Shown piece by piece: positions 26,221 to 43,344 of a DNA stretch of 44,421 nt. Positions within the stretch are counted from its first letter, which is position 1. The number at the start of each line of letters is the position of its first letter. A model generated the notes under the pieces. The model was not told the DNA's origin. It searched no databases and was given only the letters and a program-made list of their open reading frames with translations. Made by a program: the position numbers and the translations under genes. Location: the IMG/VR virus record IMGVR_UViG_2529292911_000009, one strand, 5' to 3'. Source of the stretch: a virus (taxonomy: Duplodnaviria > Heunggongvirae > Uroviricota > Caudoviricetes).

Positions 26221-26295
<75 letters not shown>

Positions 26296-26298
26296 ATA

Positions 26299-26374
<76 letters not shown>

Positions 26375-26376
26375 AC

Positions 26377-26453
26377 TGGACCGCCACCGGGGACTCGAAC
26401 CTCGCACACTCAACTTAAAGGGTTGACGCTCTTTCCTGATGAGCTAGTGGCGG
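26377..26453 (-). tRNA. tRNA-like gene, anticodon loop CCUUUAA (nominally Lys UUU), atypical
   Basis: Cloverleaf can be drawn (acceptor CCGCCAC/GTGGCGG, D stem GCTC/GAGC, T loop TTCGAGT, CCA) but it has C at position 33, C1-G72, U73 and one T-stem mismatch. Confidence 0.45.
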
Positions 26454-26454
26454 C

Positions 26455-26530
26455 TGGTGGCCCTTGCTGGATTTGAACCAGCGACCTGGCGATTATGAGT
26501 CGCTCGCTCTCACCACTGAGCTAAAGGGCC
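26455..26530 (-). tRNA. tRNA with CAU anticodon, ileX-like (tRNA-Ile2 lysidine type) or Met
   Basis: Acceptor GGCCCTT, anticodon loop CUCAUAA, T loop TTCAAAT. Closely resembles E. coli ileX as recalled. Confidence 0.7.
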
Positions 26531-29944: not shown

Positions 29945-30100
29945 TTACTCCTCAGGTTCGTAAGCTGTGAAGACAGCGACCTCCGTCTGGCCGGTTCGGA
30001 TTCGTACCTCGCAGAGGTCTTTCCTCGTTACCAGTACCGTCACTATGACGGTTAAACAGATGACGATCAGGGCGATTAACATCGCCTTTTGCTGCTTCAT
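29945..30100 (-). CDS. hok: Hok/Gef-family type I toxin
   Basis: MKQQKAMLIALIVICLTVIVTVLVTRKDLCEVRIRTGQTEVAVFTAYEPEE is a typical Hok (close to hokD/relF as recalled); an in-frame upstream extension to 30157 resembles mok. Confidence 0.85.
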   Translation of the reverse strand: MKQQKAMLIALIVICLTVIVTVLVTRKDLCEVRIRTGQTEVAVFTAYEPEE

Positions 30101-30300
30101 AGCCTGCTTCTCCTTGCCTTTCGGCACGTAAGAGGCTAACCTACATTTGTGAGACATAGATTGGGCCTCAGATTAATGTTAAGCGTCTTGCAGGACGCGT
30201 AATGTTAACTGGGGCTTTTCTCTATCTGCCTTTTGGTGTTCATGCCCGAGGCAGATAGCCTCAAGCACCCGCAGCAATTCTACTTAACTCTCCTTTTCCC
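30101..30300. other. hok mRNA leader with long hairpin and probable antisense Sok region
   Basis: Inverted repeat tctatctgcc...ggcagataga at about 30222-30262 in the expected leader position. The Sok promoter was not pinned down. Confidence 0.4.
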
Positions 30301-30360
30301 GCAAACCGTTTTTGCTCACCATGATAAGTCGTTATTGTAATTAATTGACATAACGATTAG

Positions 30361-31256
30361 TCAAAACTCAATTTTTTGCGCTGGTCTTGCATTTAATATC
30401 CAACATTCTTGATGAGTGTGGTGCGCAATCAATAAATTTTGTAGTTGTGTTTTTTTGGCTTTATAATTTAACTCATTTGTCGTATCAATTATCCAATTCC
30501 CTGTCCCCGAAGAAGCCAGTGCCATGAGTTTATTACACTCTGCATGCATATTAATTATCTCACCAAACATATCTGTTTTTGTTTTTTTATTCACAAAGTT
30601 AGTAAAAATACCAGCATGCTTATAAGAATCCATTACAGTATAACGGCCATCACCATCTATATCAGAAGGTTTTGACATCCATTTAAAAACATGAAGGAGA
30701 AAAATATTGGCCGTCCAAGGAAATTCATCTCCATCAAGAAACGTTTCAGTAGTCGCTATACTCAGACTCTCAGTAAGATTAGTCGCCCCAATTAAAACAA
30801 CCTCAGGCTCGCCATCCTTTCTTTTACCCGCCCCAACAAAATTGAACGTACCTGCATAACACTGTCCAAAATAAACAATAGCATTGTTTAAATTAGGTGC
30901 TCCTTTTAAAGCCTTGAGAAGTTGATGAGGAGTAATAGGATTTTTTGCATCCAGTCCTTGTGGGCAACCATGACCAGTAACAAACATTACTATGTTATTG
31001 TAGTTATTATCACGCAAGTCATTAAAGAAATCTGCTGATGCTTTTGACGCATAAGGATACTTCGAGGCTGATGAAAAAAATCATCAAAATTCCTGTTAGG
31101 GCTGTCAATATATATTGATATGTCTCGTGGATTTATACCGGCCTTCTCAAGACATAGCACGCCAAAAACAATATCCAAAACGTGGCGCGATTCAACTTCT
31201 TCTTTAGAACGAGGCAAAAACATAACCCATTTCGTACGCTCAGACCTAAGGCTCAT
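30361..31256 (-). pseudogene. caspase-like (clan CD) cysteine peptidase homolog, interrupted by a 1-nt indel in an A7 run
   Basis: ORFs 30990..31256 and 30361..31017 are one gene in two frames. Adding one A at plus 31074-31080 gives a continuous protein of about 298 aa with strand-helix alternation and His-Gly (IVMFVTGHG) and Cys (AIVYFGQCYAG) dyad strands. Low GC. Confidence 0.6.
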
Positions 31257-31296
31257 ACATATCCTTATGATTCGAATGTTTTAAGTTAAAATTTTG

Positions 31297-31590
31297 TTAA
31301 TATTTAGGAGGCATTGCATTACTGAAAGATGGTGGCTTTGGTATATCAATAAAGTAAAAAAGCTCATCGATGCTTAAATGTTCAGTAATTTGGGTGGACG
31401 TTATTTGCCCTCTTTCATTCAAACCAAATATTTCATCGCCAGTTTTCAGAAAAAACACCACTTCAAATGTTGTGGTTACTTCATGCGCATAAGATTTGAA
31501 CAGCATCCACTGCCCGAGATTCACACACTCTTTTACTGAATCAGAAGTATCAGGTAACGCTGACGACTGTAGCCCTGTGAATTTCATCAT
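31297..31590 (-). CDS. hypothetical protein, upstream partner of the caspase-like gene
   Basis: 97 aa, AAGGA RBS, AT-rich, preceded by a hairpin terminating the upstream operon. Confidence 0.5.
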   Translation of the reverse strand: MMKFTGLQSSALPDTSDSVKECVNLGQWMLFKSYAHEVTTTFEVVFFLKTGDEIFGLNERGQITSTQITEHLSIDELFYFIDIPKPPSFSNAMPPKY

Positions 31591-31786
31591 TTATCCTTAT
31601 GAATCCGCATACGACATTCTAACAACATGGTATTTTTACGAACACAAACTGTGTGGGCGAGTTACCGACCACACAGAGAAAATATAACTTTGTGCCTCCG
31701 TTTTCGTCAACCCCAGCGGCAAATCGAATACACCACCAGCGCCACCGCCATTGCAATTCCTACCGTTGTGAATGCTTCAGGCCAGG

Positions 31787-32131
31787 TCATCGCAAAACAT
31801 CCTCCGCGCTTATCAGTTCGTTCCGCTTCAGGTAGTCCATCGCCTTATCCGGCAATTTACAGTCCGGCTTCACTTTCCTCAGTTGCCAGGTTAACTGCTT
31901 TACCAGCATGGTTAACTCGTCGACCAGACGCTGATATCCCACTGGTTTGTATTCATGCAATTTACCGGCTGGCTCTGCTGCCAGCGATGCCAATGCGATT
32001 TCCAAAACAGCAATATCCATTTTATATGTGCGGATGATGTCATGGTCGATTGTGCCTGGTATGCACAGTCTCTGTGCTTCAATAGTCTCCTCTGCGTGAG
32101 TTATTAACTGCTCTCTGGTAAAAGTGGTCAT
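31787..32131 (-). CDS. hypothetical protein (nin-like region)
   Basis: 114 aa ORF in a co-oriented gene array; no family recognised. Confidence 0.45.
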
Positions 32132-42187: not shown

Positions 42188-42277
42188 TGGCGGAGAGAGG
42201 GGGATTTGAACCCCCGGTGGAGTTGCCCCCACTCCGGTTTTCGAGACCGGTCCGTTCAGCCGCTCCGGCATCTCTCC
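42188..42277 (-). tRNA. serU: tRNA-Ser (anticodon CGA), serU-type
   Basis: 90 nt with long variable arm, anticodon loop CUCGAAA, CCA encoded. 5' end GGAGAGATGCCGGAGCGG. Confidence 0.85.
42203..42249. repeat. att-type direct repeat, right copy (inside intact tRNA-Ser)
   Basis: Matches 151-197 with 3 mismatches; two of them form a compensatory base-pair change in the tRNA variable arm. Confidence 0.75.
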
Positions 42278-43268: not shown

Positions 43269-43344
43269 TCCTCTGTAGTTCAGTCGGTAGAACGGCGGAC
43301 TGTTAATCCGTATGTCACTGGTTCGAGTCCAGTCAGAGGAGCCA
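43269..43344 (+). tRNA. asnT: tRNA-Asn (anticodon GUU)
   Basis: TCCTCTGTAGTTCAGTCGGTAGAACGGCGGACTGTTAATCCG...GAGCCA, anticodon loop CUGUUAA. Confidence 0.9.

Follow-up and report, generated by a model that had tools for sequence, protein, structure and literature searches.

A low-GC prophage cassette beside hokD encodes a legumain-like clan CD protease and a small partner protein with a conserved asparagine tail

Caspase-fold proteases are known effectors of bacterial immunity, with SAVED-CHAT, Craspase and the gasdermin systems as examples. To our knowledge, every caspase-family protease described in this setting is of the caspase/CHAT lineage and relies on nucleotide signals or a fused sensor. 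Type IV Thoeris also employs a caspase-like protease as its effector (bioRxiv 10.1101/2024.10.24.620036). In the legumains, which are clan CD enzymes of family C13, the activation peptide of the prolegumain binds the active site canonically, adjoins an Asn cleavage site, and keeps the enzyme latent (PMC7489914). We describe here a two-gene cassette in a stretch of Caudoviricetes DNA of 44,421 nucleotides (IMG/VR virus record IMGVR_UViG_2529292911_000009), which as a whole is referred to as the window. The cassette lies beside a hokD-type toxin gene and encodes a legumain-like clan CD cysteine protease (30361..31256, minus strand; 298 residues if intact, with a −1 frameshift in this copy) and, 40 nucleotides (nt) upstream of it, a partner protein of 97 residues (31297..31590, minus strand).

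In the window the protease gene is read as two overlapping open reading frames (ORFs) on the minus strand, one of 88 residues for the N terminus (30990-31256) and one of 218 residues for the C-terminal part (30361-31017). An initial annotation, made from the window's letters, had joined the two into a protein of roughly 298 residues and, pointing to the stretches IVMFVTGHG and AIVYFGQCYAG, had called the product a caspase-like peptidase of clan CD. The fusion is correct, because intact alleles of other E. coli carry eight A residues where the window has seven (31074..31080; a T7 run on the coding strand) and encode a single protein of 298 residues; both of the quoted stretches lie in the 218-residue frame. 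An AlphaFold2 model was made of P0001, a relative 93% identical to the intact protein of strain 14EC029. The model (pLDDT 92.9, pTM 0.89) is an alpha/beta/alpha sandwich with a caspase-type central sheet, and a Foldseek search placed legumains, PIGK and peptide asparaginyl ligases at the top (E ~1e-8), ahead of CED-3, MALT1 and caspases. The clan CD fold proposed from the sequence was thus borne out, and the structure check returned a protease fold that keeps the His/Cys dyad. The label "caspase-like" is right as to clan, but the nearest relatives are legumain and GPI8 of family C13 rather than caspases.

Sequence comparisons pointed in the same direction. The Pfam model Peptidase_C13 (PF01650) scored the E. 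coli protein at 12.8 bits (E 0.088), against a gathering cut-off of 22.8, and matched 19 of 39 aligned relatives at E<=1, the best at 2.8e-6. A search of the PDB with a single protease sequence gave nothing usable; a profile built from relatives matched PDB legumains at E 1e-3 in two collinear segments that cover the RH..D region and the GHG...C region. At least 220 full-length relatives of ~295-300 residues were found by database search in Enterobacteriaceae, Pseudomonas, Burkholderia, Xanthomonas, Vibrio, Cupriavidus and others, and a hidden Markov model search of 1.84 billion representative sequences recovered 271 clusters at E<=1e-3, nearly all of them single-domain proteins of 280-320 residues. 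Judged by these sequences, the family is small, uniform and distinct from canonical legumains.

Residue conservation was determined for 134 diverse representatives. The predicted catalytic His96 (codon at 30970..30972, minus strand, in VTGHG) is kept in 97% and the adjacent Gly97 in 100%, and the predicted catalytic Cys133 (30859..30861, minus strand, in GQCYAG) and Gly136 are both kept in 100%. These motifs close consecutive hydrophobic strands, which in the family read VMFVTGH96G and VYLGQC133xAG. In AtLEGbeta, catalysis relies on C211, H168 and N64, while R66, H67, E209 and D261 make up the S1 pocket; the Arg and His of the legumain R-H-x-x-D motif line that pocket (PMC7489914). Profile alignment identified R24-H25-V-L-D28 (31173..31187, minus strand) as the counterpart of this motif, with R24 kept in 90%, H25 in 75% and D28 in 100% of the representatives. 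The Arg-His pair of legumain is therefore retained, whereas the position of its catalytic Asn, two residues before the Arg, is occupied by Glu or Asp.

The family carries a further conserved element, the segment D199-D210 (DIDGDGRYTVMD; 30628..30663, minus strand), which matches an EF-hand or DxDxDG-type calcium-binding loop. Residues D199, D201, D203 and D210 are kept in 98-99%, giving the loop form D-x-D-G-D-G-x-x-T-x-x-D. Of 252 members, 209 contain the pattern DxDxDGx5[DE] and 88 the strict PROSITE EF-hand pattern PS00018, with no occurrence in shuffled sequences. No signal peptide is present, the N terminus MSLRSERTKW leading directly to strand 1 at residue 8. At the C terminus, ~90 residues make up a two-helix hairpin (208-280) followed by a conserved HQECWILN strand, and do not resemble a death-domain-like bundle. 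From the sequences and the model, the large protein is probably an active, cytoplasmic cysteine peptidase of clan CD that is nearest to C13 and not a canonical member. We have not filed it as such because it falls below the Pfam threshold, does not have the legumain zymogen architecture, and appears to be missing part of the S1 pocket.

The 97-residue protein is the obligate partner of the protease. A homologue is encoded directly upstream of the protease gene, with a gap of ~10-50 nt or, in one locus, a 4-nt overlap, in Pseudomonas, Burkholderia, Vibrio, Xanthomonas (where the gene was not called in the source annotation), Pandoraea, Duganella, Bordetella, Luteibacter, Kluyvera and Spirochaetales/Treponema. 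All 23 assessable IMG/VR loci have the partner upstream, 22 of them with the tail motif described below. In E. coli the two genes are found in the same 12 complete genomes, at 14 places, and in addition as a divergent allele in strain SC418. Three exceptions to the pairing were seen in ~45 loci; the exceptions in pairing or tail are an N-terminally truncated copy in Caballeronia, a partner without the tail in locus L063, and loci at contig ends. Two altered forms of the partner were also noted: P0125 (126 residues, E. coli, 21 contigs), in which a DUF7167 N terminus is fused to partner residues ~30-97 and which looks like a deletion or recombination scar, and the shortened P0139 (56 residues).

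The partner is an acidic protein of 11 kDa (isoelectric point 4.8) with a small alpha+beta domain (residues 3-80) followed by a C-terminal tail. The tail is modelled with low confidence and is therefore probably flexible. In the window it contains P86-P-S-F-S-N91 (31318..31335, minus strand), the local version of a family motif P-x-S-L-S-N whose Asn is a candidate P1 residue, and ends in the variable residues AMPPKY (31300-31317, minus strand). In the family as a whole, the variable stretch after the motif is 3-15 residues long. Across 76 partner sequences the full motif is F-x-D-x-x-x-P-x-S-L-S-N, and in 73 of them the Asn stands at a fixed offset from the invariant FxD anchor. The Asn is followed by 3-13 freely varying residues (median 6), which amount to 63 distinct tails; the third residue after the Asn (P3') is hydrophobic in 43 of these. 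In Treponema the motif reads P-x-V-Q-E-N. Asp82 of F-x-D, which is 100% invariant, is an alternative P1 candidate. The simplest reading of this pattern is that the partner tail would be what the active site of the enzyme recognises. A covariation between His25 of the protease and the Asn tail was considered and set aside: the divergent pair of L063 has R-F in place of R-H and a partner without the tail, but the R-F protease of L065 has a normal SLSN partner, so that the R-F change and the loss of the tail are not linked.

We tentatively read the cassette, at somewhat less than an even chance, as a protease-based toxin or abortive-infection module in which the Asn tail of the partner lies in the active site and the protease is latent. 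The cassette would be a horizontally mobile two-gene module carried as accessory cargo (a moron) by prophages. Its second gene would supply a cytoplasmic protease of the caspase-hemoglobinase fold with a His96/Cys133 dyad, and the DxDGDG loop may render that enzyme responsive to calcium. The partner tail (P-x-S-L-S-N-x-x-hydrophobic) would sit in the substrate groove with its Asn in S1, and there it might act as a pseudo-substrate or slow-substrate cap that keeps a potentially toxic protease latent, much as the activation peptide does in prolegumain. That peptide, together with cystatin-type pseudo-substrate inhibition, is the model proposed for the tail, with the difference that the legumain peptide acts in cis as part of the same chain whereas the phage partner would act in trans as a separate protein. 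Phage infection, loss of the partner or a similar trigger would then release the protease, possibly with involvement of the calcium-type loop, to cut proteins of the cell or of the phage, with a toxin-antitoxin-like or abortive-infection effect as the result. Such an effect would protect the population of lysogens or stabilise the element.

The main rival of this reading retains the recognition of the tail by the enzyme but takes the partner to be a dedicated substrate rather than an inhibitor. Cleavage after the Asn would remove the tail of 3-13 residues and either release a matured, active small protein or transfer the C-terminal Asn to a target amine by transpeptidation, as GPI8 and the asparaginyl ligases do. 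We consider such a processing or ligation system unlikely, but several features would suit it. Dedicated transpeptidases (PIGK, butelase and the OaAEP1/VyPAL ligases) are among the nearest neighbours of the protease in structure; conservation of the partner runs as far as one fixed position, beyond which a short variable tail follows, as in precursors with a leaving-group propeptide; and P3' is mostly hydrophobic. Moreover, ligation by legumain is favoured near neutral pH (PMC7489914), which would suit the cytoplasm. That the phage protease carries out transamidation is, by this analogy with its structural neighbours, pure speculation. An extension of the same idea, to which we give a very small probability, is a minimal tagging or maturation system in which a possibly calcium-gated transpeptidase would form a thioester at the partner Asn, shed the variable tail and ligate the 10-kDa partner to phage or host targets, or in which the tail peptide would be released as a signal. 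If true, it would constitute an immune or conflict mechanism that parallels ubiquitin-like conjugation with asparaginyl-ligase chemistry and is unlike any described in bacteria.

The cassette is mobile. Alignment with an otherwise collinear prophage of E. coli SE11 that does not contain it delimited a low-GC insert of ~1.4 kb (~30314..31706): the shared sequence ends at ~30313 on the hok side and resumes at ~31707, and the short repeat CCGTTTT is present at both junctions. The GC content of the insert is 0.367 compared with 0.477 in the flanks; by position it is 0.33-0.39 over 30300-31650 and ~0.48-0.55 in the flanks. The initial annotation had described a low-GC insert beside hok, and both the empty site and the composition agree with it. 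The right junction coincides exactly with the stop codon of an ORF for a 27-residue hydrophobic peptide (31707-31790, minus strand), whose ATG overlaps the stop codon of an upstream 114-residue ORF (ATGA) and which is also found in the empty-site SE11 prophage. The hokD-type gene itself (29945..30100, minus strand, 51 residues; annotated hokD in the near-identical 14EC029 prophage) belongs to the flank, lying outside the insert, directly downstream of the cassette and on the same strand.

Other lambdoid prophages have different cargo at this position. SE11 has nothing there, E. coli UTAK-3 has an ORF6N-domain gene (L013:1640-2191), the Qin prophage of E. coli K-12 has relB-relE (L038:3347-3873), and the window has the protease cassette; because the contents vary in this way, we regard the slot upstream of hokD as a cargo hotspot. 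The likeness to Qin that had been noticed earlier proved sound, in that relB-relE occupies the same slot in the same orientation. In both arrangements, a two-gene cassette that begins with its smaller gene directly precedes hokD on the same strand and is placed between nin/replication genes and DUF968/Q. RelE is an mRNA interferase and RelB a DNA-binding antitoxin, and neither sequence nor fold relates the pair to the protease cassette.

Surveying the neighbourhoods of homologues revealed no fixed place in replication or morphogenesis modules. In E. coli and Enterobacter the cassette sits within the nin region, flanked by replication genes and DUF968/RusA/Q, and in another prophage it follows a Q-like antiterminator. 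In Yersinia it lies within a tail/baseplate cluster, in Pseudomonas at a prophage end by the integrase, in Burkholderia in an integrase/resolvase island, and in Cupriavidus after a ClpP-like gene. Its GC content was lower than that of the flanks in all 21 loci compared. It is also rare, with 16 loci in 100,044 species-representative genomes and 26 contigs among the 2.9 million of IMG/VR. Two porcine E. coli strains, ETEC1747 (NZ_CP122722.1) and ETEC4085 (NZ_CP122634.1), each carry two copies at different chromosomal places, presumably in two prophages. In Burkholderia aenigmatica a DRT8 reverse transcriptase gene lies 91 nt downstream of the cassette (L019:3102-4721), and in Luteibacter sp. 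SG786 the Gabija genes gajA (E 3e-197) and gajB (E 1e-126) lie 1.6 kb upstream (L022:2314-5029). The Caballeronia cassette has a type I methyltransferase gene and a restriction-enzyme-like gene nearby. The adjacency to DRT8 and Gabija suggests defence islands and, with the position beside a toxin gene, forms the context from which a toxin, abortive-infection or defence function may be proposed.

The same context bears on two other rivals. One is a plain addiction (toxin-antitoxin) module that would stabilise the prophage or island by means of a labile partner neutralising a stable toxic protease, with no role against phage. The small gene upstream and larger gene downstream, the use of the relBE slot beside hokD, the presence on mobile elements throughout, and an intact partner in all E. 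coli copies alongside a protease knocked out in four independent ways would fit this explanation. The gene arrangement and the strict co-occurrence would also fit a type II toxin-antitoxin system, in which the antitoxin usually binds DNA, but no antitoxin domain was detected in the partner, nor a DNA-binding domain for autoregulation, and the DRT8 and Gabija neighbours point to defence. We consider pure addiction distinctly unlikely, although it is hard to separate from a toxin or abortive-infection module because many toxin-antitoxin modules also act in defence. The other rival, to which we assign a slight probability, is a protease that serves the phage by cleaving host immune or stress factors at induction or during lysogeny, as counter-defence or for takeover, with the partner as a chaperone or specificity factor. 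Such a role would be consistent with a prophage-borne cassette that sits, in Yersinia, inside a structural gene cluster and that appears to have its own promoter. However, the cassette is also found in non-phage islands and beside host defence genes, it keeps no set position with respect to early or late genes, and a search of 50,697 sequenced phage genomes turned up neither protein. What ties the cassette to viruses is its presence in prophages and on IMG/VR contigs.

We also compared the alleles of the protease gene. A full-length match to the region was present in 13 of 5426 complete E. coli genomes, and in most matching E. coli the allele is an intact gene of 897 nt for a 298-residue "hypothetical protein" (WP_000058713/712). 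The window differs from the intact 14EC029 allele by the 1-nt deletion in the homopolymer and by one mismatch, C16R. At this codon (31209-31211) the window encodes Arg where all other enterobacterial alleles encode Cys (LPRSK vs LPCSK). In SC418 (L003:4154-5050) the RefSeq start is an internal GTG that gives a protein of 279 residues; this start looks too late because the full 298-residue frame, with an ATG and the N-terminal strand, is intact upstream.

The frameshift is probably a real minority allele, because E. coli ETEC1731 shares the T-run deletion and the 88-residue product is on record from five contigs, compared with 90 for the intact protein, although the deletion may also be an error of homopolymer assembly. 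With the gene frameshifted, the copy in the window is inactive, barring slippage on the U7 run that would bring back the frame. Whether the window's own cassette is a decaying pseudogene remnant, whose split ORFs give no working enzyme and have no present function, is an evenly balanced question. Decay would be in keeping with the 1-nt deletion relative to intact alleles, with a 218-residue fragment that does not include beta1, alpha1 and beta2 and hence has no R24, H25 or D28, with the insertion sequences and second frameshift of other copies, and with the recovery of the frameshift product from several independent assemblies. Set against this, assemblies often contain errors in homopolymer length, and any decay must be very recent, as outside the deletion the gene is one mismatch from an intact allele. 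From the nucleotide sequence, moreover, a −1 slip on U UUU UUU would yield exactly the intact protein, as would transcriptional slippage.

Among 16 E. coli copies (15 from complete genomes and the window), the protease gene is broken in five, by four different events: the T-run deletion in ETEC1731 and the window, an A-run deletion near codon 267 in CV839-06, and insertions at different sites of IS1A in STEC409 and of IS1B in strain 0-4. The partner gene is intact in all 16. Repeated inactivation of the protease gene is compatible with a costly or toxic protease.

Several observations weigh against a latent toxin or defence protease capped by the Asn tail. The bias of the disruptions was considered as evidence of toxicity and rejected: that all four events fall in the longer gene has a chance of ~0.32, which is not significant. 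Known defence genes were found near only 2-3 of 14 loci outside E. coli, a raw count with no background rate. PADLOC-DB v2.0.0 contains no family that matches the protease or the partner at E<=10, and neither protein is linked to defence or toxin-antitoxin systems in NCBIfam or Pfam. The partner has no match in Pfam or the PDB and no recognisable DNA-binding or antitoxin fold; its match in PHROGs, the only one there for either protein, is to a family of unknown function. As to the docking of the tail, the S1 Glu of legumain, two residues before the Cys, is the invariant Gly131 in this family, and no counterpart of the S1 Asp was identified by alignment, so that Asn specificity cannot be read from the pocket. 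His25 is replaced by Phe in 17% of relatives, one of which nevertheless has an SLSN partner. Finally, the divergent pair on the IMG/VR metagenome contig L063 (765-1016 and 1029-1892; protease 39% identical) has a partner that ends in ...YFSDIETT, without the Asn tail.

Expression signals of the cassette were examined as well. Both genes had been described as carrying ribosome-binding sites, and an AAGGA indeed precedes each ATG by 5-6 nt. At the upstream edge of the insert, a consensus scan located a sigma-70 promoter-like site, TTGACG-18-TATATT (31681..31710, minus strand; 10 of 12 matches), although the region contains no more such sites than chance would give. Between this site and the partner gene lies a conserved hairpin with a stem of 8-10 base pairs followed by UUUGUGUU (31649..31676, minus strand). 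The hairpin region aligns in three of three E. coli alleles and the stem arms are largely kept, but the z-score of the fold is only −1.6. The initial annotation had assigned the cassette its own upstream terminator; the hairpin is there, but a terminator scan did not call it. Since it lies just downstream of the promoter-like site, a terminator role is not established.

Elsewhere in the window, four prophage tRNA genes (26221-26530, minus strand) with the identities Gly-TCC, Thr-TGT and Lys-TTT and a CAT anticodon are located between the Q antiterminator and the lysis genes. The tRNA with the CAT anticodon is called Met by ARAGORN and Ile by RefSeq in the near-identical prophage. At the right end of the window, a tRNA-Ser(CGA) gene (42188-42277, minus strand) and a tRNA-Asn(GTT) gene (43269-43344, plus strand) lie beside what are integrase genes in matching genomes, and this area is probably the prophage attachment region.

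For annotation, the analysis turns two "hypothetical proteins" into a defined family of at least 271 sequence clusters in Proteobacteria and Spirochaetes, and it flags the slot upstream of hokD as one to inspect for cargo in lambdoid prophages. The putative recognition element, one nearly invariant Asn in a flexible tail, lends itself to sharp tests. If the enzyme is specific for Asn and works in the cytoplasm at neutral pH, it could serve protein engineering as a compact asparaginyl endopeptidase or ligase of bacterial origin.

No described system was matched to the cassette, which the initial annotation could not place in one either: in addition to the PADLOC result, a literature search on legumain or C13 proteases with phage or defence, on caspase-like two-gene systems and on the accessions found no description of the protease family in the papers searched. 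A gasdermin-protease system was considered and rejected, since the only conserved neighbour is the partner of 91-105 residues, compared with ~240-300 for a gasdermin, and it has no Pfam or PDB match. The legumain-type asparaginyl endopeptidases and ligases (C13, PF01650) are only 13-18% identical to the phage protease. The legumain zymogen is a secretory or vacuolar protein with a signal peptide and a C-terminal LSAM prodomain, whereas the phage enzyme is predicted to be cytoplasmic and has the helical hairpin and HQECWILN strand instead. It also differs from legumain in having Glu or Asp for the catalytic Asn and Gly for the S1 Glu, in its extra DxDGDG loop, and in being encoded with a dedicated small partner. 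GPI8/PIGK, also of family C13, is a eukaryotic enzyme of a membrane complex; the phage cassette has none of the complex subunits, no membrane anchor and no glycosylphosphatidylinositol chemistry. The proteases of type IV Thoeris and SAVED-CHAT and those that activate gasdermins are of the C14/CHAT lineage and are coupled to TIR, SAVED, CRISPR or gasdermin partners, whereas the cassette encodes a stand-alone, C13-like enzyme of 298 residues with a partner of 97 residues. A function in immunity would thus add a legumain-lineage enzyme with a simple two-protein logic to the caspase-family immune proteases. Caspase-fold protease effectors are known already; what is new here is an enzyme of the legumain lineage that is paired with a small, Asn-tailed partner.

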